Part shown: positions 10,283-31,759 of the stretch, piece by piece | Layout of the letters: every line of letters starts with the position of its first letter | Numbering within the stretch: the first letter of the stretch is position 1 | From: Escherichia coli | Lineage (GTDB): Bacteria > Pseudomonadota > Gammaproteobacteria > Enterobacterales > Enterobacteriaceae | DNA length: 64,000 nt | Direction: 5' to 3' (one strand) | NCBI RefSeq assembly: GCF_030013205.1 | Contig: NZ_CP122648.1 | Position numbers and translations under genes: made by a program | The notes under the pieces: generated by a model | Seen by the model: only the letters and a program-made list of their open reading frames with translations | The model's database searches: none | Told to the model about the DNA's origin: nothing

Positions 10283-10998
10283 TGGGACAGCGCGCGTGAA
10301 CCTCTTTCGCGTGCGCTGTTGATCCACATCCGGCTGCCGTTGAGGGCAATAAAGGTCAGGATGATGTACTCCAGAGACATGGCGTAAACGCCCTGAAGTG
10401 CAAAAATAACGACGCTAATCACGTTAATAATCACCCACAACAGCCAGTTTTCCACATACTTACGCGTCATCAGAATCATTGCCACGATAGATAACACCAT
10501 CATGCATGAATCCCAGAACGGGAAAGCGTCCGGTTGCAGTTCAGGCATCACAACCTGTAATCCTAATGCTTGCATGATCATGACTGCCACGCGGGTCAAA
10601 AATGCAAACACCGGATTGATAAATACCGTCATCAGACCAATCGAAACAACGCAAACCGCCAACCAGCTTAGCGCCTTCGGCAATGGCAACCAGCGAATTT
10701 TCAACTCCGCCTCGTTCTGACTGGTTTGTCGCGACCACGCATACCAACCGTAAATATTCGCGGCAAAGAAAAACACCTGTAATAGCAGGCTGGCATACAG
10801 CTGAATCTGAAAGAAAATAATGCCAAACAAGGTGACGTTGATCAGGCCAAAGAAGTAGTTGCTGATCTTCTCCAGACTGGCAAGGCCAATACACAGCAAC
10901 CCGGCGATCGTGCCTACCGCTTCGATCCATGAGAGATCATAACCGCCTGCTCCTATTGGTATATGTACCAGGATATTCTGCACACTAAAAAAATCCAT
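10279..10998 (-). CDS. pnuC: Nicotinamide riboside transporter PnuC
   Basis: 239-aa membrane-protein ORF immediately downstream of nadA on the same strand; stop codon overlaps the zitB stop (convergent). Confidence 0.9.
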
Positions 10999-19424: not shown

Positions 19425-20564
19425 TTAGTACAGAGAGTGGGTGTTACGTTCAATATCTTCTTTGGTGATACGACCGAACATTTTCCAGTAACACCAGGCG
19501 GTGTAGAGCAGAATGATCGGTACCAGAACCACCGCAACCCAGGTCATGACGTTAAGTGTCAGCTGGCTGGAAGTTGCATCCCACATTGTCAGACTTGCGT
19601 TCATCATGGTGCTGGACGGCATCACAAACGGGAACATTGCGATACCGGCAGTCAGGATGATGCAGGCCAGCGTCAGGGAGGAGAACACAAACGCCCACGC
19701 GGCTTTATCCATACGTGCAGTCAGGATGGTCAGCAGCGGCAGAACCACACCCAGTGCCGGAATAGCCCACAGAATTGGCGTGTTGTTGAAGTTTACCAGC
19801 CATGCGCCAGCTTCACGAACCACTTCTTTATTCAGCGGGTTAGAGGCTGCGTAATGGTCCATTGTCGATTTCACGACATAACCATCGATACCGTACATCA
19901 CCCATACGCCAGCCAGTGCGAAGCAGACCAGTGTCACCAGTGCCGCCACCTGAGCCGTTGCACGGGTACGCAGGTGCAGTTCGCCCACGGTACGCATTTG
20001 CAGGTAAGTCGCGCCCTGAGTAATGATCATTCCTACGCTCACCACGCCAGCCAGCAGGCCGAACGGGTTAAGCAGCTGGAAGAAGTTACCGGTGTAGTAC
20101 AGACGCAGATATTCATCAACGTTGAACGGTACGCCCTGCAACAGGTTACCGAACGCCACACCAATCACCAGCGGCGGAACGAAGCTACCAATGAAGATGC
20201 CCCAGTCCCACATGTTACGCCAGCGGGTTTCTTCAATCTTGGAGCGGTAGTCAAAACCGACCGGACGGAAGAACAAAGATGCCAGCACGAGGATCATCGC
20301 CACATAGAAGCCGGAGAACGCAGCGGCATAGACCATCGGCCAGGCAGCAAAGAGTGCGCCGCCCGCGGTGATCAGCCAAACCTGGTTACCGTCCCAGTGT
20401 GGTGCAATGGAGTTAATCATAATTCGACGCTCGGTGTCGTTACGACCGAGGAAACGGGTGAGCATGCCCACCCCCATGTCGAAACCGTCAGTGACTGCAA
20501 AACCAATCAGCAGAACGCCAACCAGCAGCCACCAGATAAAACGCAATACTTCATAATCGATCAT
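19425..20564 (-). CDS. cydB: Cytochrome bd-I ubiquinol oxidase subunit II
   Basis: 379-aa polytopic membrane ORF matching CydB. Confidence 0.95.
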   Translation of the reverse strand: MIDYEVLRFIWWLLVGVLLIGFAVTDGFDMGVGMLTRFLGRNDTERRIMINSIAPHWDGNQVWLITAGGALFAAWPMVYAAAFSGFYVAMILVLASLFFRPVGFDYRSKIEETRWRNMWDWGIFIGSFVPPLVIGVAFGNLLQGVPFNVDEYLRLYYTGNFFQLLNPFGLLAGVVSVGMIITQGATYLQMRTVGELHLRTRATAQVAALVTLVCFALAGVWVMYGIDGYVVKSTMDHYAASNPLNKEVVREAGAWLVNFNNTPILWAIPALGVVLPLLTILTARMDKAAWAFVFSSLTLACIILTAGIAMFPFVMPSSTMMNASLTMWDATSSQLTLNVMTWVAVVLVPIILLYTAWCYWKMFGRITKEDIERNTHSLY

Positions 20565-20579
20565 TTGACGACTCCTGTC

Positions 20580-22148
20580 TTAGCGTGCCGGCTGAGTAGT
20601 CGTGGAAGACTGCTCAAAGTGATAGCGACCGGTTTTCAGGCTGCTTGGGCCGAGGCGTGCATACTTGAACATTAAGAACAATTCTGCCACCAGGAACAGG
20701 GTATACAGGCCGCAAATCAGCACCATTGAGAAGATGAGATCGCCTGCGGTCAGTGACGAGTTCGCCACAGCTGTCGGCAGCACTTCACCGATAGCCCACG
20801 GTTGGCGGCCATATTCAGCCACGAACCAGCCCGCTTCTACAGCAATCCACGGCAGCGGAATACCGTACAGCGCGGCGCGCAGCAGCCATTTTTTCTCGCC
20901 AATGCGGTTGCGGATGACACTCCAGAAAGAGAGCGCGATGATTGCCAGCAGCAGGAAGCCACACGCCACCATGATACGGAACGCGAAGTACAGCGGCGCT
21001 ACACGCGGAATGGAGTCTTTGGTTGCCTGTTGAATCTGCGCTTCAGTCGCATCCGCCACGTTTGGCGTATAGCGTTTCAGCAGCAGACCGTAACCGAGGT
21101 CTTTCTTCATGCTATTGAACTGGTCACGAACCGCCTGGTCGGTAGAACCAGAACGCAGTTGTTCGAGCAGAGAGTACGCCTTCATCCCGTTACGAATGCG
21201 TTCTTCATGCTGCACCATCAGCTCTTTCAGGCCGATAACCGGGGTATCCACGGAACGCGTTGCAATGATGCCCAGTGCGTAAGGGATCTGGATTGCAAAT
21301 TTGTTCGTCTCCTCTTCCTGATCAGGAATGCCGAACAGAGTAAAGGCAGCAGGTGCAGGTTGCGTTTCCCACTCGGCTTCAATAGCAGCCAGTTTGGTTT
21401 TCTGCACGTCGCCCATTTCGTAACCAGATTCATCACCCAGAACAATAACAGACAGAACGGCAGCCATACCGAAGCTGGCAGCGATAGCAAAGGAGCGTTT
21501 AGCGAAGGCGAAGTCACGACCTTTCAGCATATACCATGCGCTGATACCGAGGATGAACATCGCGCCAGTCACATAACCAGAGGCTACAGTGTGAACGAAT
21601 TTCACCTGAGCAACCGGGTTAAGCACCAGCTCGGAGAAGCTCACCATCTCCATACGCATAGTTTCAAAGTTGAAATCGGATGCGATTGGGTTTTGCATCC
21701 AGCCGTTCGCAACCAGAATCCACAGTGCGGACAGGTTTGAACCGAGCGCCACCAGCCAGGTGACACACATATGCTGAACTTTACCCAGACGATCCCAACC
21801 GAAGAAGAACAGACCTACAAAGGTGGATTCGAGGAAGAAGGCCATCAGACCTTCGATTGCCAGCGGCGCACCGAAGATATCCCCTACATAGTGGGAATAG
21901 TAAGACCAGTTAGTCCCGAACTGGAACTCCATGGTCAGACCGGTAGCCACACCCAGAGCGAAGTTGATACCAAACAACTTGCCCCAGAACTTGGTCATAT
22001 CTTTATAAATCTGTTTGCCGGAAAGGACGTAGACCGTTTCCATAATGGCCAGCAGGAACGCCATACCGAGCGTCAGTGGCACAAAAAGGAAGTGGTACAT
22101 CGCGGTCAAGGCAAACTGTAAGCGCGACAGTTCGACTATATCTAACAT
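20580..22148 (-). CDS. cydA: Cytochrome bd-I ubiquinol oxidase subunit I
   Basis: ORF 20580..22151 (MMLDIV...); matches CydA, start at the second Met. Confidence 0.95.
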
Positions 22149-22151
22149 CAT

Positions 22152-22950
22152 GACTCCTTGCTCATCGCATGAAGACTCCGAGAGTGAACCCCGTTAGAAA
22201 GGGTCACACGCATGCCCCAATACAAAATTATTTGCTCGCCTCTATCGTTGCCATTTCATCAAAAGAGGAAAAGACAATGATAAAAAAGTTACAAATATGT
22301 TAATGAATAAACCAAATTGATCCCGTAATTATATTACGCCGCAAAATCCTTACAATAAACAGGTTTTTATTGAGCAAATTTGCATTTTTCGACAGTGATC
22401 AATTTATAGCGAAATTGTCACGATCTCACCAATTTGATCTACGACAATTTATCGTGTTTTGCAGATTTTTTTCAAGAATTAAAAATTGATTTATATCAAA
22501 ACCAACCAAATATGTTAATTATGTATAAACCATAGATCATTGGTGATTTTATTGTTAATTTATTGTGAAATATTTATGCAACACAATTATTACAATGAAA
22601 AGGTATAGATAAAAAACCAGTGTTTTATTTAACAGAACCGCCTTATCCACTTTTTATAATACCAATTGATTAGATTAGCCAATTTGTTGCTATTTTACAT
22701 AACATATTTTTATCAAAGTTAATTGATTGTTGCGTTTATGAGCACCGGCCGTAAGCCCGTTATGTTATTGTTTCATTAGTAATAATCACTTAAATGTATC
22801 GATGAAACAGGTATGACTTAGCGGGAGTGATTGTTTCTGAGTGAACAGAGACCACTTTCGCCTGATAAATGAAAAATGAGCGATTTTTGCAAGTTAGTTT
22901 TTCTATAGCCGAGTACGCTCAGCGCCTCGCTTGATTACAATGAGGTTGCT
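22152..22950 (-). promoter_or_regulatory. Long AT-rich cydAB regulatory region
   Basis: About 800 bp AT-rich non-coding DNA upstream of cydA (a 60-bp sample at 22501-22560 has 14/60 G+C); contains FNR-like palindromes. Confidence 0.7.
22486..22499. promoter_or_regulatory. FNR-type binding site (perfect TTGAT-N4-ATCAA)
   Basis: ttgatttatatcaa matches the FNR consensus exactly; a second imperfect site ttgatctacgacaa at 22434-22447 lies 52 bp away. Confidence 0.5.
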
Positions 22951-22953
22951 GCT

Positions 22954-23898
22954 ATGAGTCCTGATAATATCAGTTCTGCTGTCAATCGCTTCTCAGGTTG
23001 GCCATCTAATGATCCTCTAAAAACAGATAAAGAATCAATGACATCACCCATGACTGTGCAGGTAATAAAGATGATTGCCGCCATCCTTGACCCACATCGG
23101 ATAGTCGTTGGAATCGATACACTTTATACAACGCAGCGCGAAACATTTACCTCAGAGAGTCAACAGCTCATTGAATCAGCATTGCAAACACTTCATGTGA
23201 TGAATTTAAATAACCTGGAAACAAATCTCGATGAGGAAGGTCACTATCTGGCTTTTGGATATAACGTTGACACTCCTGACAGAATAACCGTTTCTGCTTA
23301 TAATGAAAAAAAGCCTGGCTGCTATGGCCAATGTCTTTTAATACAGGATGACGAAACAGACTTATTTAACCTGATAAAAGTTAAAATTTTTGAAGCCAGA
23401 CATAATTATGTCGCTCAATTGATGAGCGATCCGGAATTTATGTTCAAATTTAGTTATAGCGCTCAACAAAATAGATTAGAACCTCATCTTCTGGTTCCCA
23501 CTTATTTCCCTCTAAAAACAAACGAACCGGTTACGCAAGAGGATGTACTGTTACTTTATCGTTTCTTTAAAATGGATGGTGATTTTAATATATTAACATC
23601 AGATGAATACATGAGCATCATGACACCTCTGATGAAGTGTGAGCGCAGCATCCACGACCACAACAGGTATGTGACGGGCAAAGATACCCTTCTTCTGGAC
23701 TATCCTCCTTCTGGTAACCAGATATATTTCCATATTTTTCCTGACGAATCAGCAACACTAGTCCTTTATTTTTCAAACAATGACATTGAATGTTTCGTCT
23801 TTGAAAGAGATATTCCGAGCCAGTATCGCTTTTTCAAAATGTTTACCAATCTGGCACTGGTTATTGATCAGTTAACCGATGCCAATCAAATACTTTAA
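22954..23898 (+). CDS. Hypothetical protein (314 aa), low-GC orphan, no recognisable family
   Basis: Uninterrupted ORF with GAGG RBS 8 nt upstream of the ATG; AT-rich codon usage (spot counts 25/60 and 18/60 G+C) unlike neighbouring core genes. Confidence 0.6.
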   Translation: MSPDNISSAVNRFSGWPSNDPLKTDKESMTSPMTVQVIKMIAAILDPHRIVVGIDTLYTTQRETFTSESQQLIESALQTLHVMNLNNLETNLDEEGHYLAFGYNVDTPDRITVSAYNEKKPGCYGQCLLIQDDETDLFNLIKVKIFEARHNYVAQLMSDPEFMFKFSYSAQQNRLEPHLLVPTYFPLKTNEPVTQEDVLLLYRFFKMDGDFNILTSDEYMSIMTPLMKCERSIHDHNRYVTGKDTLLLDYPPSGNQIYFHIFPDESATLVLYFSNNDIECFVFERDIPSQYRFFKMFTNLALVIDQLTDANQIL

Positions 23899-23978
23899 TT
23901 TTTATATATTCCCTGTGGCAAATATTGCTAAACAATGCCCGGGGATTAATTTTTATTACTCACGGAAAGATTTAAATA

Positions 23979-24401
23979 ATGATCCCATCTCAAATCTCTT
24001 TCAACACCCTTCCTGTCAATGCAACATACGCTTCAGAGACAACAGTTGACACACAAAAATTCTCTGACATCCTCTACTCAGCGGGGTGTTCCCTAAAGGA
24101 TCTGGCTTATCTGAGCAGATGTCTGGCATCAATACATCCGACTATCGCCAAAAACATTTATGAAACAGAAAATCTCAGCGATCAAAAATTACTACATATT
24201 GATTGCCGTAGTACAAATGAAATCAAGATAAATATCTTTTTTGGTCAACAACGAGAAGGATTAATTGAAATTAGTTCTGACACAGTCATTTTTTCGATAC
24301 TGTCTTCATTGATTGACTCCACCATTTCTAAATTTCAACACCAAAACCCCGTTAACGGTTCTGTAAATCCTGACCTATTGTATGAGGATTATACTGATTA
24401 A
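23979..24401 (+). CDS. Hypothetical protein (140 aa), low-GC orphan, no recognisable family
   Basis: ORF 80 bp downstream of the 314-aa ORF on the same strand, similar composition; polar Ser/Thr/Ile/Asn/Pro-rich N-terminus. Confidence 0.5.
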   Translation: MIPSQISFNTLPVNATYASETTVDTQKFSDILYSAGCSLKDLAYLSRCLASIHPTIAKNIYETENLSDQKLLHIDCRSTNEIKINIFFGQQREGLIEISSDTVIFSILSSLIDSTISKFQHQNPVNGSVNPDLLYEDYTD

Positions 24402-24948
24402 ATCCCTCCTGTCGCGAAAAATGGCCTGCGTTATTGCCAGACGTAATAAAACTTTTGATTAACGTTTCTCGTACTGGTAGCACCTTCATGTACTTTTCTT
24501 TTTTACGAAAAATCAAAAGAGCTAACAAAGGTCATAATTCGCATGAATCATTAATTATTTGTTATTTTCAACATTATTTTTACATTAAGCAGAGATGAAT
24601 TGCTGTGAAATTCGACTTAACTTTTATGAAATGCATTTACTCATGGCTAAAGCCACGTCACAAAAATGCAAATTAGAAGTTGATCACAATTATCTCAATA
24701 CATCAAATCAAGTTAATTTTAAAAATTTAACATTCATGACATCAGTTGACATAACACACTGAATTAAAATGAGAATTTGAAAACACACTTTAAACAATCA
24801 TTTCCCGAAAGACATTTTGAAAATAGATCAATTGCAACATTACGGTCAGATAAAGACACTCCTGTGATATTAAACCTGTGCCGTTATGAACGGCCATAAA
24901 TACGACGTGTGTAACTTATTTTACTCTCTGTCTTACAAAGGATTACCC
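24402..24948 (+). promoter_or_regulatory. AT-rich leader / probable promoter region of the glutamate mutase operon
   Basis: 547 bp of AT-rich non-coding DNA directly upstream of the first operon gene; no ORF of 60 aa or more. Confidence 0.4.
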
Positions 24949-25398
24949 ATGAAGAAAGCAACACTTGTGATTGGCGTTATTGGCGCGGACTGCCATGCAG
25001 TAGGCAATAAAGTTCTGGACCGCGTTTTTAGCAACCATGGCTTCAGAGTCATTAATCTGGGCGTAATGGTCAGCCAGGACGAATATATTGATGCGGCCAT
25101 TGAAACTGGCGCTGACGCGATTGTCGTCTCCTCTATCTATGGGCATGGCGATATCGATTGTCTGGGCATGCGCGAACGCTGCATTGAGCGTGGGCTGGGT
25201 AACATCCTGCTCTATGTGGGCGGTAACCTGGTGGTCGGAAAACATGACTTCGCTGACGTGGAAACCAAGTTCAAAGAGATGGGATTTGATCGCGTCTTTT
25301 CCCCAAGTCATGACTTAGAAGATGTTTGTCAGCTGATGGCCCACGATATCAACCAACGTCATGACGTTGATACTCGCATTCTTGAAGAGGCAATCTGA
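24949..25398 (+). CDS. Glutamate mutase sigma (S) subunit, B12-binding (methylaspartate mutase small subunit)
   Basis: Start chosen at [21 protein letters not shown] (AAGGA RBS upstream); DxHxxG cobalamin-binding motif; aligns by eye with recalled Clostridium GlmS/MutS. Confidence 0.85.
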
Positions 25399-26786
25399 TG
25401 CAAATCGTCTCTGTCGATATTGGTTCGACGTGGACCAAAGCAGCCCTCTTCACCCGGGAGGGGGACGCGTTAACGTTGGTTAACCACGTTCTGACCCCAA
25501 CCACCACCCATCATCTGGCGAAGGGGTTTTTCTCCAGCCTGGACCAGGTGTTAAACGTAGATGATGCCCTCCCCCTGTTAAACAGTGGTGAGGTTGCATT
25601 GAAGTATTCCTCCTCTGCCAAAGGTGGGCTGGCGGTTGCCGCAATGGGATTGGTGCCTTCTATCACCCTGGAAACCGCGAAAGTAACCGCTCACTCTGCG
25701 GGTGCTAAAATTGCGCAATATTACGCCTACAAGCTGAACCGCCGTGATATCCAGGCACTGGAAGAAACGCAGCCCGATATTCTCTTGTTCACCGGCGGCA
25801 CCGATGGCGGAGAAGAAAGCTACGGACTGAATAACGCCCGTGTGTTGGCAGAATCCAAACTCGACTGCGCCATTATTTATGCCGGAAACCGGGATATTCA
25901 GGACGAGGTGCAGGAGGTCCTCGGGCATAAAGACCTGACCATCGTCGACAACGTTCTGCCCGATCTTGACCATCCGAACCCTTTAGCCGCACGCCAGGCT
26001 ATTTGCGACATATTCCTTAAACGCATCGTTAAAGGGAAAGGGCTGGATGTCATTGTTGATAAAACAGGCGAAGAACCAATGCCGACACCATGGACGGTCT
26101 TTGAACTGGTTAAGGCAATCAGTAACGTCGATCACAGCTGGAAAGAGTTCATGCTGATCGACATGGGCGGCGCAACCACCGATGTTTATTCCGCCTGTGC
26201 CAACACGCTCTCGCCCGACACCGTTCTACACGGCGTACCGGAACCCTTCGTGAAACGGACGGTGGAAGGCGATCTGGGAATGCGCGTCTCGGCAATGGTG
26301 GTTGGTGAAAGTGCGAAAGAGTTAGTCAATGTGAATTTTGCTCAGCAACCCGCACAGCTGGACGCTTTTTATCATTACCTCCGCCATCTAGTCGCTCATC
26401 CCGACTACTTACCCGCGAATGCAGAAGAAAAATATTTCGATACCGTCCTGGCCGGAGTGTGTGTGGGTTATGCCACCGAAAGACATGCGGGCACCAAAAA
26501 AGAGGTCTGCACCTGCGTCGGCAATGTCGATTTACAGATGGGACGTGATCTGACAACCGTGCGTAAAGTCGTGGGTTCCGGCGGATGGCTCTCGCGTGCC
26601 AGTCAGTTCGATATGCATCACTGGTTGAAATACCGCGAGTTAAACGACGACGGTAAACGCATTCTCTTACCGACCGAATTTGAATATTACCGCGATTCCC
26701 GGGGGCTATTACCACTGCTGGCAAACGTCGCCAGAGTCGATCCGCTGGCCGCCGCGCGCACCAGTATTCAATGCTTAACCCTATAA
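25398..26786 (+). CDS. Glutamate mutase-associated protein GlmL/MutL-like
   Basis: 462-aa ORF lying between the S and E subunit genes, the same order as in the clostridial operon; start overlaps the upstream stop. Confidence 0.7.
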   Translation: MQIVSVDIGSTWTKAALFTREGDALTLVNHVLTPTTTHHLAKGFFSSLDQVLNVDDALPLLNSGEVALKYSSSAKGGLAVAAMGLVPSITLETAKVTAHSAGAKIAQYYAYKLNRRDIQALEETQPDILLFTGGTDGGEESYGLNNARVLAESKLDCAIIYAGNRDIQDEVQEVLGHKDLTIVDNVLPDLDHPNPLAARQAICDIFLKRIVKGKGLDVIVDKTGEEPMPTPWTVFELVKAISNVDHSWKEFMLIDMGGATTDVYSACANTLSPDTVLHGVPEPFVKRTVEGDLGMRVSAMVVGESAKELVNVNFAQQPAQLDAFYHYLRHLVAHPDYLPANAEEKYFDTVLAGVCVGYATERHAGTKKEVCTCVGNVDLQMGRDLTTVRKVVGSGGWLSRASQFDMHHWLKYRELNDDGKRILLPTEFEYYRDSRGLLPLLANVARVDPLAAARTSIQCLTL

Positions 26787-26804
26787 CAATTAAGGCTGCA
26801 ATCA

Positions 26805-28250
26805 ATGGAACTTCGAAATAAGAAATTAACCCATGACGAATTCATGACCGAGCGGCAACAGGTACTGAAAACCTGGGAAACCGGCAAGGATGTTGAAAAC
26901 TTTGAAGATGGCGTTAAATACCAACAAACCATCCCTGAGCATAAACGCTTCTCTCTTGCGCTGCTGAAAGCAGACAAGGAAGGTAAAACCCTTAGCCAAC
27001 CGCGCGCAGGTGTGGCGCTGATGGACGAACACATCGAACTACTGAAAACACTACAAGAAGAGTGCGATCTGCTGCCGAGCACTATCGATGCATATACCCG
27101 TCTGAATCGGTACGAAGAAGCGGCTGTAGGGATTAAAAAATCCATCGAAGCCGGAACCTCTAAACTGAACGGTTTGCCGGTAGTTAACCATGGCGTCGCA
27201 GCTTGCCGTCGCCTCACCGAAGCCCTGCAAAAACCGCTACAGATCCGCCACGGCACGCCAGATGCGCGTCTGCTGGCTGAAATCTCGATGTCCAGCGGCT
27301 TTACCAGTTACGAAGGCGGCGGCATTTCCTACAACATTCCGTATGCCAAACGCGTAACGCTGGAAAAATCGATCCGCGACTGGCAGTACTGCGACCGTTT
27401 AATGGGGATGTATGAAGAACACGGGATCCGCATCAACCGCGAACCGTTTGGCCCACTAACGGGTACGCTGATCCCGCCGTTTATCTCGCACTCTATCGCG
27501 ATCATCGAAGGCTTGCTGGCGCTGGAACAGGGTGTGAAATCTATCACCGTTGGTTATGGACAGGTCGGCAGCCTGACGCAGGATGTTGCGGCGATCCAGT
27601 CTCTGCGTGAACTTGCACACGAATATTTTCAGAGCTATGGCTATACCGACTATGAATTAAGTACCGTGTTTCACCAGTGGATGGGCGGCTTTCCGGAAGA
27701 CGAATCGAAAGCGTTCGCTATTATCTCCTGGGGCGCAGCCGTCGCGGGGATGTCTGGTGCCACCAAAGTCATCACCAAAAGTCCGCACGAAGCCTGGGGT
27801 ATCCCGACTGCCGCTGCCAACATTCAGGGGCTGAAAGCCTCCCGCCAGATGCTCAACATGGTCAACGAGCAGAAATTCCCGCCGTGCCCTGCGGTTGAAC
27901 TGGAAATTGAACTGATTAAGAGCGAGGTTCGCGCAGTACTGAATAAAGTGTTCGAACTGGGTAATGGTGATATTGCGCGCGGTACGGTGCTGGCATTTGA
28001 AGCGGGCGTACTGGATGTGCCGTTTGCACCAGCCGCGTGTAACGCGGGCAAAATTCTTCCGGTCCGTGACAACACCGGCGCGATACGCGTACTGGAAGCC
28101 GGAGCCGTTCCATTGCCAAAAGATATTCTCGACCTCCACCACGATTACGTTGCTGAACGCGCACGCTTTGAAGGACGCCAACCGACATTCCAGATGGTTG
28201 TAGATGACATCAATGCTGTATCCCACAGTAAATTAATAGGAAGACCATAA
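26805..28250 (+). CDS. Glutamate mutase epsilon (E) subunit (methylaspartate mutase large subunit)
   Basis: 481-aa ORF, size and position consistent with GlmE/MutE; TIM-barrel-type sequence. Confidence 0.8.
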   Translation: MELRNKKLTHDEFMTERQQVLKTWETGKDVENFEDGVKYQQTIPEHKRFSLALLKADKEGKTLSQPRAGVALMDEHIELLKTLQEECDLLPSTIDAYTRLNRYEEAAVGIKKSIEAGTSKLNGLPVVNHGVAACRRLTEALQKPLQIRHGTPDARLLAEISMSSGFTSYEGGGISYNIPYAKRVTLEKSIRDWQYCDRLMGMYEEHGIRINREPFGPLTGTLIPPFISHSIAIIEGLLALEQGVKSITVGYGQVGSLTQDVAAIQSLRELAHEYFQSYGYTDYELSTVFHQWMGGFPEDESKAFAIISWGAAVAGMSGATKVITKSPHEAWGIPTAAANIQGLKASRQMLNMVNEQKFPPCPAVELEIELIKSEVRAVLNKVFELGNGDIARGTVLAFEAGVLDVPFAPAACNAGKILPVRDNTGAIRVLEAGAVPLPKDILDLHHDYVAERARFEGRQPTFQMVVDDINAVSHSKLIGRP

Positions 28251-29491
28251 TGAAAATAAAACAGGCCCTGTTCACCGCTGGCTACTCCTCATTCTATTTC
28301 GATGACCAGCAGGCGATAAAAAACGGAGCGGGTCATGACGGCTTTTTTTATACCGGGGAGCCAGTAACACAGGGGTTTAACGCCGTACGTCAGGCCGGGG
28401 AGTGCGTATCGGTACAGTTGATTCTGGAAAACGGCGCGGTCGCCGTAGGTGACTGTGCTGCCGTACAGTATTCCGGGGCAGGTGGTCGCGATCCACTGTT
28501 CCTCGCGGAGCACTTTATTCCGTTCCTCAACGACCATATCAAGCCATTACTGGTAGGCCGCGATGTGGATACTTTCCTGCCGAATGCCCGTTTCTTCGAC
28601 AAATTGCGTATTGACGGCAACTTGCTGCATACCGCCGTGCGCTACGGATTATCACAGGCGCTGCTTGATGCTACCGCGCTGGCAACCGGCCGTCTGAAAA
28701 CTGAAGTGGTCTGTGATGAATGGCAGTTGCCACGCGTGGCGGAATCCATTCCATTATTTGGTCAGAGCGGCGACGATCGATATATCGCCGTCGATAAGAT
28801 GATCCTTAAGGGCATCGACGTGCTGCCCCATGCACTGATTAATAACGTCGAAGAGAAACTGGGCTTTAAAGGTGAAAAACTGCGCGAATATGTCCGCTGG
28901 CTGTCGGATCGTATTCTGAGCAAGCGCACCAGCGCACGCTACCACCCTACCCTGCACATCGATGTATACGGCACTATCGGTCTGATCTTCGATATGGATC
29001 CGCTTCGCTGTGCGCAATACATCGCCAGCCTGGAAAAAGAAGCGCAAGGCCTGCCGCTCTACATTGAAGGTCCGGTCGATGCCGGTAACAAGCCCGATCA
29101 AATTCGCCTGCTGACCGCGATTACCAAAGAGCTGACGCGCCTCGGTTCCGGCGTGAAACTAGTGGCCGATGAATGGTGTAACACCTACCAGGATATTGTT
29201 GATTTCACCGATGCCGCCAGTTGCCACATGGTGCAAATCAAAACCCCGGATCTGGGCAGTATTCACAACATCGTCAATGCAGTTCTTTATTGCAACAGCC
29301 ACAGCATGGAAGCGTACCAGGGCGGCACCTGCAATGAAACTGATGTCAGTGCCCGCACCTGTGTCCACGTCGCCCTTGCCGCTCGCCCCATGCGTATGCT
29401 GGTAAAACCAGGGATGGGCTTTGACGAAGGCCTCGATATCGTCTTCAACGAAATGAATCGTACTATCGCGCTGTTGCAGGCTAAGGATTAA
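28250..29491 (+). CDS. 3-Methylaspartate ammonia-lyase
   Basis: 413-aa ORF (enolase superfamily size), immediately downstream of and overlapping the E subunit gene (TAATG). Confidence 0.8.
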   Translation: MKIKQALFTAGYSSFYFDDQQAIKNGAGHDGFFYTGEPVTQGFNAVRQAGECVSVQLILENGAVAVGDCAAVQYSGAGGRDPLFLAEHFIPFLNDHIKPLLVGRDVDTFLPNARFFDKLRIDGNLLHTAVRYGLSQALLDATALATGRLKTEVVCDEWQLPRVAESIPLFGQSGDDRYIAVDKMILKGIDVLPHALINNVEEKLGFKGEKLREYVRWLSDRILSKRTSARYHPTLHIDVYGTIGLIFDMDPLRCAQYIASLEKEAQGLPLYIEGPVDAGNKPDQIRLLTAITKELTRLGSGVKLVADEWCNTYQDIVDFTDAASCHMVQIKTPDLGSIHNIVNAVLYCNSHSMEAYQGGTCNETDVSARTCVHVALAARPMRMLVKPGMGFDEGLDIVFNEMNRTIALLQAKD

Positions 29492-29494
29492 CAA

Positions 29495-30865
29495 ATGGCT
29501 CGTTCTTTTAAAGTCTTATCGCCTACGGCAATCCTCGGGTATGGATTCCCGGAGGAGAGCTTCCGCAAAGCGATGGCAGAATCGCCCGATCTGATCGCCG
29601 TTGATGCTGGCTCTTCCGATCCTGGCCCCCACTACCTCGGGGCGGGCAAACCGTTTACCGATCGCGCAGGGGTCAAGCGCGATCTGCGCTATATGATCAC
29701 CGCAGGCGTGCAAAATAATATACCGGTGGTGATCGGAACGGCCGGCGGTTCTGGTGCCGCTCCACACCTGGAGTGGTGCCGAGAAATAATTCATGAGATT
29801 GCCCGGGAAGAGCACCTCTCGTTCTCGATGGCGCTGATCCCGGCAGACGTTGACAAAGCCATCGTCCACCAGGCGCTGGATAACGGCAAAATCACGGCGC
29901 TGGATTTTGTCCCGCCGTTAACCCACGACGCGATTGACGAAAGTACGTATATCGTCGCGCAAATGGGCATCGAACCCTTCCAGCAGGCGCTGAAAGAAGG
30001 CGCGCAAGTGGTGCTGGGCGGGCGCGCTTACGACCCGGCCTGCTTTGCTGCGCTACCGATCATGCAAGGCTTTGATGAAGGTCTGGCGCTGCATTGTGGG
30101 AAAATCCTTGAATGCGCGGCAATCGCCGCAACGCCCGGCTCAGGCTCTGACTGTGCGATGGGCATCATTGATGACAACGGCTTTACGCTGAAGACATTTA
30201 ATCCGAAGCGTAAATTTACCGAAACGTCAGCAGCTGCACACACACTGTATGAGAAATCCGATCCCTACTTCCTGCCAGGACCTGGCGGCGTGTTGAACCT
30301 GAAAAGCTGCACATTTAAAGCGGTCAATGACGGCGAAGTGTACGTCAGCGGTTCTAAGCATGAAGAAACGCCGTATTCCCTGAAACTGGAAGGTGCGCGA
30401 CGGGTGGGCTTCCGCTGTCTGACCATCGCCGGAACGCGCGACCCGATCATGATCGCCGGGATCGATAAAATCATCGATGAAGTCAAAACCAGCGTTTCGC
30501 GTAACCTGTCGCTCGACGATGACAGCATTCACATCAATTTCCACCTGTACGGCAAAAACGGGGTGATGGGCGACCATGAACCGATGCAAACTGCCGGGCA
30601 TGAGCTGGGGATTGTCCTTGATGTAGTTGCACCGACCCAGGAAATTGCCAACAGCGTTTGCTCGCTGGTGCGCTCTACCATGCTGCACTACGGCTATGAA
30701 AACCGCATCGCTACCGCAGGTAATCTGGCGTTCCCGTTCTCCCCTTCTGATATTCAGGGCGGGCCGGTATACGAATTTTCCATATATCACCTGATTGAAG
30801 CCAACGACGCTCTGCGTTTTGATTTCCATATTGAACAGGTGACGCCAGAAGGAGTTCAGGCATGA
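29495..30865 (+). CDS. DUF1446 (AtuA-like) family protein, function unknown
   Basis: 456-aa ORF 3 nt after the lyase stop; family assignment from memory of this size class and its usual pairing with a small DUF4387 partner. Confidence 0.55.
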   Translation: MARSFKVLSPTAILGYGFPEESFRKAMAESPDLIAVDAGSSDPGPHYLGAGKPFTDRAGVKRDLRYMITAGVQNNIPVVIGTAGGSGAAPHLEWCREIIHEIAREEHLSFSMALIPADVDKAIVHQALDNGKITALDFVPPLTHDAIDESTYIVAQMGIEPFQQALKEGAQVVLGGRAYDPACFAALPIMQGFDEGLALHCGKILECAAIAATPGSGSDCAMGIIDDNGFTLKTFNPKRKFTETSAAAHTLYEKSDPYFLPGPGGVLNLKSCTFKAVNDGEVYVSGSKHEETPYSLKLEGARRVGFRCLTIAGTRDPIMIAGIDKIIDEVKTSVSRNLSLDDDSIHINFHLYGKNGVMGDHEPMQTAGHELGIVLDVVAPTQEIANSVCSLVRSTMLHYGYENRIATAGNLAFPFSPSDIQGGPVYEFSIYHLIEANDALRFDFHIEQVTPEGVQA

Positions 30866-31061
30866 AACAGTCAATTGTCTCACTGGCGCAAGTCATTCGT
30901 TCGAAAAATGCCGGACCTTACGAACTGGTTTTAGATATTTTATTTAAAACCAAAGAAAACTATGAGCGAGTCAAATCATCAGGGCAATTAACCCCAGAAC
31001 TGATTGGGTGATGCTGCCAACTTACTGATTTAGTGTATGATGGTGTTTTTGAGGTGCTCCA

Positions 31062-31337
31062 GTGGCTTCTGTTTCTATCAGCTGTCCCTCCTGTTCAGCT
31101 ACTGACGGGGTGGTGCGTAACGGCAAAAGCACCGCCGGACATCAGCGCTATCTCTGCTCTCACTGCCGTAAAACATGGCAACTACAGTTCACTTACGCCG
31201 CCTCTCAGCCCGGTACGCACCAGAAAATCATTGATATGGCCATGAATGGCGTCGGATGTCGCGCCAGTGCACGCATTATTGGCGTTGGCCTCAACACGAT
31301 TTTCCGCCACTTAAAAAACTCAGGCCGCAGTCGGTAA
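31062..31337 (+). CDS. insA: IS1 protein InsA
   Basis: 91-aa ORF with zinc-finger Cys residues (CPSCSA...CSHC). Confidence 0.9.
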
Positions 31338-31759
31338 CCTCGCGCATACAACCGGGCAGTGATGTGATTGTCTGCGCTGAAATGGACGAACAGTGGGGCT
31401 ACGTCGGTGCTAAATCACGTCAGCGCTGGCTGTTTTACGCGTATGACAGGATGCGGAGGACGGTTGTGGCGCACGTCTTCGGTGAACGCACTCTGGCCAC
31501 ACTGGAGCGTCTTCTGAGCCTGCTGTCGGCCTTTGAGGTCGTGGTATGGATGACGGATGGCTGGCCGCTGTATGAATCACGCCTGAAGGGAAAGCTGCAC
31601 GTTATCAGCAAGCGTTATACTCAGCGCATTGAGCGGCATAACCTGAATCTGAGACAACATCTGGCAAGGCTGGGACGGAAGTCACTGTCGTTCTCAAAAT
31701 CGGTGGAGCTGCATGACAAGGTCATCGGGCATTATCTGAACATAAAACACTATCAGTAA
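31256..31759 (+). CDS. insB: IS1 InsB frame (expressed as InsAB' transposase by -1 frameshift)
   Basis: 167-aa ORF in the -1 frame relative to insA; slippery A-run (ttaaaaaactc) at about 31311-31321. Confidence 0.9.

Follow-up and report, generated by a model that had tools for sequence, protein, structure and literature searches.

Between cydA and a glutamate mutase operon, Escherichia coli contig NZ_CP122648.1 (assembly GCF_030013205.1) carries two adjacent plus-strand open reading frames (ORFs), A and B, which were examined in a window of 64,000 nucleotides, i.e. the whole stretch of DNA that was analysed. ORF A (22954–23898) starts with ATG and encodes a protein of 314 amino acids (WP_001305591), and ORF B (23979–24401), read in a different frame, encodes one of 140 amino acids (WP_000613115). 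Both products are named 'hypothetical protein' in RefSeq; the genes are ECs0767 (A) and ECs0766 (B) in O157 Sakai and probably Z0898 and Z0897, respectively, in EDL933, where they were matched by gene order and not by sequence. The genes are annotated and uncharacterised, and in kind they would belong to silenced, taxonomically restricted orphan genes. At a probability of roughly 0.6, we consider both to be real, old, single-copy orphan genes restricted to the genus Escherichia and lying in a silenced AT-rich block of 2.7 kb, with A weakly kept by selection and B dispensable.

A non-coding gap of 80 bp (23899–23978, 30% G+C) separates the two ORFs, and a 547-bp AT-rich spacer (24402–24948, 32.2% G+C) separates B from the annotated start of glmS at 24949. 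On the left, cydA is divergent from A and is followed by cydB-cydX-ybgE-tol-pal. Upstream of the minus-strand gene cydA, the proximal, conserved part of the cydAB control region (22149–22524) is common to K-12 and lies outside the orphan block; it is followed by an AT-rich variable region 5′ of A (22525–22953, 26–36% G+C). On the right lies an island of glutamate mutase and methylaspartate ammonia-lyase (MAL) genes, comprising glmS, glmL, glmE, MAL, an AtuA-like gene, a DUF4387 gene and genes for a symporter, a fumarase, cobO and a LysR regulator, and then sucD. The G+C content is 38.2% in A, 37.1% in B and 33.2% in the cydA–A intergenic region, and the block 22200–24948 as a whole has 34.9%, versus 50.5% for the window and 52.4% for glmS–glmE. 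The minimum of the 300-bp profile, 26%, falls at 22350–22800, and G+C at third codon positions is 0.34–0.36 in A and B versus 0.56–0.62 in the adjacent genes. Thus, the layout that the first-pass annotation had read from the sequence, two same-strand ORFs 80 bp apart followed by a 547-bp AT-rich spacer, is exact in coordinates and sizes, and the low G+C content relative to the glutamate mutase operon is likewise borne out, the composition being foreign-like.

Upstream of A, a GAGG motif is located at 22942–22945, 8 nt 5′ of the ATG, and B is preceded only by a weak GGAAAG, 9 nt 5′ of its ATG. A promoter scan found no consensus sigma-70-like plus-strand site 5′ of A, the number of promoter-like sites being 12 versus 12.0 in shuffled sequences, and no terminator-like site was found 3′ of B. 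The glutamate mutase operon presumably has its promoter region in the spacer 24402–24948, which has no Rfam match at E ≤1. The segment 22200–24900 is 100% identical to that of E. coli strain K_EC180. Annotation of the surrounding DNA differs between reference records: the Sakai RefSeq record has no ECs_0765 between ECs_0764 (glmS) and ECs_0766 (B), and in EDL933 two extra small ORFs, Z0896 and Z0899, are annotated within the AT-rich non-coding DNA.

Searches for relatives agree with the earlier statement that the two proteins belong to no recognisable family. Neither A nor B had a match in Pfam below E=0.14, any match in NCBIfam, a family in PADLOC-DB (E ≤1) or a match among the sequences of the PDB; in PHROGs, A had no match and B a single non-significant one to a family of unknown function (E=0.056). 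An exhaustive, index-free profile search was run for A: a HMMER hmmsearch of 1.84 billion representative proteins yielded 14 matches, all from its own family and all short proteins of 36–131 amino acids covering parts of the profile, none of them longer or more distant. B was covered by word-indexed searches of 5.8 billion proteins, which for both A and B returned only Escherichia or Shigella sequences. Consistent with this, a scan of one genome per species recovered the locus only in E. albertii, in Escherichia sp. MOD1-EC7003 and in two metagenome-assembled genomes. The contigs of the latter, labelled Collinsella sp. (L008) and Citrobacter sp. (L009), have 98–99% DNA identity to the E. coli locus and are almost certainly mis-binned E. 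coli. Two seemingly divergent B homologues with 50–59% identity, P0046 and P0047, were discarded: P0047 comes from a low-quality, indel-filled assembly with 98% DNA identity, and P0046 displays the same scrambled pattern, probably the same artefact. Within the searches made, both proteins therefore have the homologues of ORFans, confined to a narrow clade. No mention of ECs0766, ECs0767, Z0897 or Z0898 in this sense was found in literature text, and the supplements of further papers that were looked up contained nothing on A or B.

An origin from a phage or plasmid was considered and rejected. No phage relatives of A or B were detected with tblastn, and in the plasmid collection tblastn matched only three E. 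coli records, 99–100% identical and non-mobilizable. These are NZ_CP141089.1 and NZ_CP134663.1 (4.9 Mb each) and CP088669.1 (0.73 Mb) in PLSDB, probably chromosomal sequence filed as plasmids.

Both proteins are acidic (isoelectric points of 4.7 for A and 4.65 for B) and soluble, with polar N-termini; hydropathy analysis found no hydrophobic segment long enough to span a membrane in either, and both are presumably cytoplasmic. The Ser/Thr/Asn/Pro-rich N-termini quoted in the first-pass annotation are present, with 13 of residues 1–25 of A being Ser, Thr, Asn, Pro or Ile by manual count, a composition that is not specific to secretion signals. AlphaFold2 models are poor because the alignments are shallow, with a mean predicted local distance difference test (pLDDT) score of 43 for A and 42 for B. 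The low-confidence models suggest two helix-helix/3–4 strand/helix units in A, and helices, three strands and one helix in B. Foldseek searches retrieved only the own family of A in AFDB50, followed by noise at a TM-score of ~0.12, and for B nothing in the PDB below E=0.14. Thus, the structure and BLAST follow-up that had been proposed yielded only own-family matches or noise, consistent with orphan status. The similar order of elements in these models prompted the idea that the N-terminal half of A, its C-terminal half and B are three copies of one unit; such duplication or paralogy was rejected as unsupported by BLASTP (E=2.1), hhalign (probability ≤1.4%) and Smith–Waterman comparison with shuffled sequences (p=0.10–0.79).

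Although A has no family, it evolves as a coding sequence. Compared among alleles of E. coli and with the orthologue of E. albertii, A has a ratio of nonsynonymous to synonymous substitution rates (dN/dS) of 0.28–0.45, the lowest of the six frames, and substitutions are distributed over the three codon positions as 64/54/96 (p=0.0012), with p=0.001–0.006 for codon-position bias across tests. When the 214 differences observed in A between E. coli and E. albertii (23% DNA divergence) were placed at random, the ORF was kept open in 3 of 5000 trials (0.06%, p=0.0006). For B, dN/dS is 0.21–0.41, also the lowest of six frames, its codon-position bias is not significant, and its coding evidence is weaker than that of A. 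Both lie far from the constraint on their neighbours, with dN/dS of 0.02–0.19 in the glm genes and <0.02 in cydA, and dN of A (0.21) is 4–14 times that of the glm genes. A is a real coding gene under weak purifying selection and is fast-evolving (omega ~0.4). In B, the core (residues 28–115) is nearly invariant among E. coli, and both termini are variable. Alleles of B form two groups distinguished chiefly by their two ends, and some, P0012 for example, look recombinant.

These results bear on the main rival explanation, applicable especially to B, namely that A and B are decaying relics, remnants of an old acquisition that are silenced and of no use and survive only because deletion is slow. 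For A, the lowest dN/dS of all six frames, the significant third-position excess and the frame kept open across so many substitutions all argue against it; selection on A means that A is not junk. Further evidence on both sides comes from diversity, losses and expression, described below, and on balance we regard relics as unlikely, though less so than any other rival.

The whole block is unusually polymorphic. Among 7 E. coli alleles, nucleotide diversity (pi) across 22530–24930 is 0.04–0.085 versus 0.005–0.02 in the flanks, with cydA and the glm genes, i.e. 3–8 times higher, in coding and non-coding DNA alike. By part, pi is 0.011 in 22149–22524, 0.028 in 22525–22789 and 0.081 in 22790–22953, a segment of 164 bp that is specific to A-carrying genomes and is the most polymorphic part; it is 0.073 in the A–B gap, which contains indel columns, and 0.052 in the B–glmS spacer, where it peaks at 0.085 and which is part of the same hyper-polymorphic block. 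Candidate causes of this polymorphism include a relaxation of constraint, faster mutation of silenced DNA and the preservation of old alleles through recombination.

Taxonomic distribution dates the locus. Of 5426 complete E. coli genomes, 1135 carry A-B, as a single copy (median of one place per genome), and the glm operon is likewise present in 1135. Carriers include isolates from blood, urine, dog, chicken and wastewater as well as enterohaemorrhagic (EHEC) and enteropathogenic (EPEC) E. coli. The order cydA-A-B-glutamate mutase is common to E. coli, E. albertii and Escherichia sp. MOD1-EC7003, and the locus is therefore old and vertically inherited and not a mobile module. Moreover, A has a synonymous divergence (dS) of 0.54 between E. 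coli and E. albertii, similar to the 0.65–0.97 of the glm genes, which indicates that the block was inherited together. The arrangement predates the split of these Escherichia species and is neither a recent nor a mobile insertion. The survey of distribution and neighbourhoods that had been called for thus gives a clear answer: Escherichia only, a common gene order and vertical inheritance. Of the separate horizontal origin put forward at first, the foreign-like composition stands, but the event would at best be ancient, given the order common to three lineages and the similar dS values. In this arrangement, which is ancestral, the AT-rich block (~22200–24948, 35% G+C) lies between the cydAB control region and the glutamate mutase island.

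Descent of the two genes has been uneven. In E. albertii L018–L020, cydA is followed by A, by B with a stop codon and then by glmS-glmL-glmE-MAL; the stop in L018 is an in-frame TGA at about codon 36. Other E. albertii strains have a deletion that extends from mid-B through the island, and L003 and L010 keep only a remnant of B. In both E. albertii configurations A is intact, with 314 amino acids, 65% amino acid identity, dN/dS of 0.40 and no indels, which again speaks against a relic. By contrast with these strains, A is frameshifted in the type strain of E. albertii, which can be counted for a relic, as can the other inactivations of the pair. In MOD1-EC7003, one enterobacterial repetitive intergenic consensus (ERIC) element sits inside A and a second has taken the place of codons 1–93 of B; the frames of glmS, glmL and glmE are open. 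Frameshifted B variants of 160 amino acids are represented by P0010 and P0014, the latter standing for 105 member sequences, and the word-indexed protein search found a fragment in Shigella dysenteriae. Among 60 sampled E. coli carriers, an IS4 insertion was found in 1, and in the other 59 both genes are listed as 'hypothetical protein' coding sequences (CDS) with nothing else under the match. This listing, which does not extend to pseudogene flags, also speaks against relics; the 59 include O145:H28 strain 16003, in which B is nevertheless frameshifted. B is dispensable and has been repeatedly inactivated by a nonsense codon, frameshifts, ERIC insertion and deletion. The initial description of A and B as a two-gene module does not hold in the sense of an obligate one, as E. 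albertii keeps an intact A while B has an in-frame stop or is mostly deleted.

Several details of these alleles can be added. The ERIC (intergenic repeat unit, IRU) repeats of MOD1-EC7003 lie at 10348–10470 and 11090–11219 of L011, are ~120–130 bp long and have opposite orientations; they match the ERIC1R primer sequence at 22 of 22 positions and ERIC2 at 21 of 22. In the 160-residue B variant, the frameshift is near codon 127 (window ~24355–24465), so that the conserved C-terminal tail YEDYTD is replaced and the frame reads into the spacer. A proposal derived from L003, that A predates the glm island, was withdrawn, as there are E. albertii strains with A, a stop-bearing B and the glm operon.

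The pattern of loss also bears on the proposal that A is a substrate of a type III secretion system (T3SS) and B its small acidic partner or chaperone. The proposal draws on the polar, Ser/Thr/Asn/Pro-rich N-termini, on the size and charge of B (140 residues, isoelectric point 4.65), which are typical of class I chaperones, on a low G+C content like that of many effector genes, and on the presence among carriers of lineages positive for the enterocyte effacement locus (LEE), namely O157:H7, O55:H7, O145:H28, E2348/69 and E. albertii. Indeed, a larger protein with a polar N-terminus beside an acidic protein of 140 residues, both of low G+C content, recalls Tir/CesT pairs of effector and class I chaperone. 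B has the small acidic format (~130–150 residues) of this chaperone class, but it has neither a CesT-like domain nor a record of being retained together with its partner. No effector or CesT-type chaperone family was matched in Pfam or NCBIfam, and the predicted structure of B, although a weak model, is unlike the alpha-beta3-alpha-beta2-alpha pattern of chaperones. Moreover, in LEE-positive E. albertii and in O145:H28 the would-be chaperone B is reduced to a pseudogene, and the would-be effector A is retained. Unlike effector genes, which are recognised by family homology or by a location in the LEE, a prophage or an effector locus, A and B lie in backbone DNA from cydA to glm, outside any pathogenicity island or prophage. 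Furthermore, isolates from blood, urine, dog, chicken and wastewater encode A proteins of identical sequence, and the pair is common among isolates whose sources are not those usual for T3SS pathotypes. This locus is not known to be part of the published effector repertoires of Sakai and E2348/69. We consider secretion of A with B as its helper highly improbable, and the effector pair proposed at first is not supported.

A toxin–antitoxin, toxin–immunity or other small defence pair would account for two adjacent same-strand genes, the larger first and the small acidic one second, at a hypervariable chromosomal spot, and for their fast protein evolution and high allelic diversity. However, PADLOC returned nothing, no toxin, antitoxin or immunity family was matched, and the pair corresponds to no defence model. 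The 80-bp gap is non-coding and polymorphic and allows no translational coupling, which is atypical for type II pairs; A and B thus display neither a domain nor the tight coupling and joint retention of toxin–antitoxin genes. Furthermore, there are genomes in which B is dead and A intact, so that A could be the toxin and B its antidote only if A is fully silent. No defence or mobile genes adjoin the locus, which has no defence-island or mobile-element context. Type II toxin–antitoxin pairs are normally expressed constitutively, and expression here is essentially off. This is the least probable of the explanations weighed, and neither the toxin/immunity pair nor the defence module listed among the initial possibilities is supported by these comparisons.

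The constant neighbourhood raises instead the possibility that A and B serve the glutamate mutase (mesaconate pathway) island, or cydAB, as accessory or regulatory genes. By count, co-occurrence with the glm operon is near-perfect in E. coli, and the cydA-adjacent position is constant in every A-bearing lineage. The co-occurrence is, however, attributable to physical linkage, and the two parts come apart in several genomes: in MOD1-EC7003, glmS, glmL and glmE are open while A and B are destroyed, and conversely E. albertii L003 (with A) and E2348/69 (with A and B) have no functional glm operon. Likewise, K-12 and B2 strains run cydAB without A and B, and Pfam detected no DNA-binding or cofactor domain in either protein. 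A role as accessory to these operons is therefore very unlikely.

Published expression data come from the O157 lineage, and the RNA conditions comprise laboratory, plant and faeces. In EDL933 transcriptomes, none of the four hypothetical ORFs located between glmS (Z0895) and cydA (Z0900) exceeds 12 reads per kilobase per million (RPKM) in any of the 11 conditions (Landstorfer 2014, PMC4048457 Table S4). Z0897 (B by gene order) has an RPKM of 2 in lysogeny broth (LB) and 0 elsewhere, and Z0898 (A by gene order) peaks at 5, in LB with antibiotics; Z0896 is among the never-transcribed genes, and Z0899 reaches 11–12 at pH 9 and 15 °C (PMC4048457). Over the same conditions, cydA ranges from 2 to 212, with 81 in plain LB, and the glm genes are nearly untranscribed too, with an RPKM of 0–3 (PMC4048457). 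In the shotgun proteome table of O157 strain 86-24, the row for Z0894 is followed by that for Z0900 with none between (PMC3210124), and no evidence for translation of A was found in this table. In O157, the ORFs that separate glmS from cydA, A and B among them by gene order, show essentially no transcription, and none was detected as protein. An AT content far above average and little or no wild-type transcription are two marks of H-NS-silenced xenogeneic DNA, and such behaviour fits the silencing that the first-pass annotation had considered probable. From AT content and low RNA, we infer that the block would be kept off by nucleoid-protein silencing, of the H-NS type, of AT-rich DNA. It had also been held that absence of transcription or translation under any condition would refute the idea of a genuine module: in the O157 data this is nearly the case, but selection on A argues against junk.

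Near-zero expression in 11 conditions and the absence of both proteins from the O157 proteome table suit relics equally well, and other observations also weigh against the reading of A as kept and B as dispensable within a silenced block. Diversity of the ORFs (pi 0.048–0.056) is only slightly lower than that of flanking non-coding DNA (0.05–0.08), a closeness expected of relics, and an omega of 0.4 combined with near-non-coding diversity would also fit genes drifting towards loss. The near-uniform listing of both CDS as undisrupted among the sampled carriers sits uneasily with a dispensable B, and, judged from the near-invariant core of B, A and B may be functional partners in E. coli. Models with a pLDDT of 42–43 are too poor for ruling out a known fold. 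The RNA and protein evidence covers one lineage and limited conditions, in which Z0897 and Z0898 are assigned by gene order. Finally, direct H-NS data on the locus were not found, the supplements of papers on EHEC regulators having no entry.

Collectively, we still favour old, Escherichia-only orphan genes in a silenced block, with A under weak selection and B dispensable. On this reading, A would have a conditional, non-essential, cytoplasmic role independent of B, of the glm operon and of a T3SS. A stronger version, which we hold to be distinctly unlikely, is that A is a functional, fast-evolving, Escherichia-specific protein of undescribed fold that is de-silenced in its natural niche only, with B as an optional partner, the two forming a genus-specific accessory system; as part of the same tentative proposal, the niche could be the gut during anaerobic amino-acid fermentation, or contact with host or competitor.

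Two known classes of genes offer parallels. H-NS-silenced cryptic loci of E. coli such as the bgl operon (PMC2646131) are similarly AT-rich, silent in the laboratory, carried by part of the species with signs of weak selection, and repeatedly lost or inactivated in other lineages. However, bgl has known families, a biochemical function and demonstrated H-NS dependence, whereas A and B have no family and their silencing is inferred. ORFans of O157:H7 (PMC4765031) resemble A and B in their narrow clade, low G+C content, poor expression and coding evidence drawn from evolutionary signatures, but A is large for an orphan (314 amino acids), older than the split of E. coli and E. albertii and long annotated.

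A-B is improbable as a determinant of virulence or defence and therefore ranks low for functional follow-up, barring induction in an hns mutant or in-host data. About one in five of the complete E. coli genomes carries it, among them those of O157:H7, O55:H7, O145:H28 and EPEC E2348/69. If the favoured reading is true, the locus offers a clean, datable case of orphan-gene persistence, in which selection retains one gene weakly and the other has undergone independent losses. The result will not surprise a specialist, and its value is that of a tidy example of how orphan genes persist and are lost.

A further result is that the cydA–sucD interval (window 22149–36000) is a hotspot of replacement, in which at least four different contents are found: A-B with the glutamate mutase island, as here; mngR-mngA-mngB in K-12; a single tetratricopeptide repeat (TPR) protein in LF82; and, in the E. 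albertii-like L003, A with a gene for a 258-residue outer-membrane-like protein. In EPEC E2348/69 variety 2 (L017), A, B and glmS are present and ISEc13 replaces the remainder. Homology to K-12 DH10B (20500–22524, 95.6%) ends at 22524 and that to LF82 (B2) at 22789. In the favoured reading, the A-B arrangement disappears by deletion or replacement at this hypervariable spot. The neighbouring glm operon is itself decaying in some pathogens, with glmL frameshifted in O145:H28 strain 16003 (L015) and ISEc13 in place of all that follows glmS in the E2348/69 variant.

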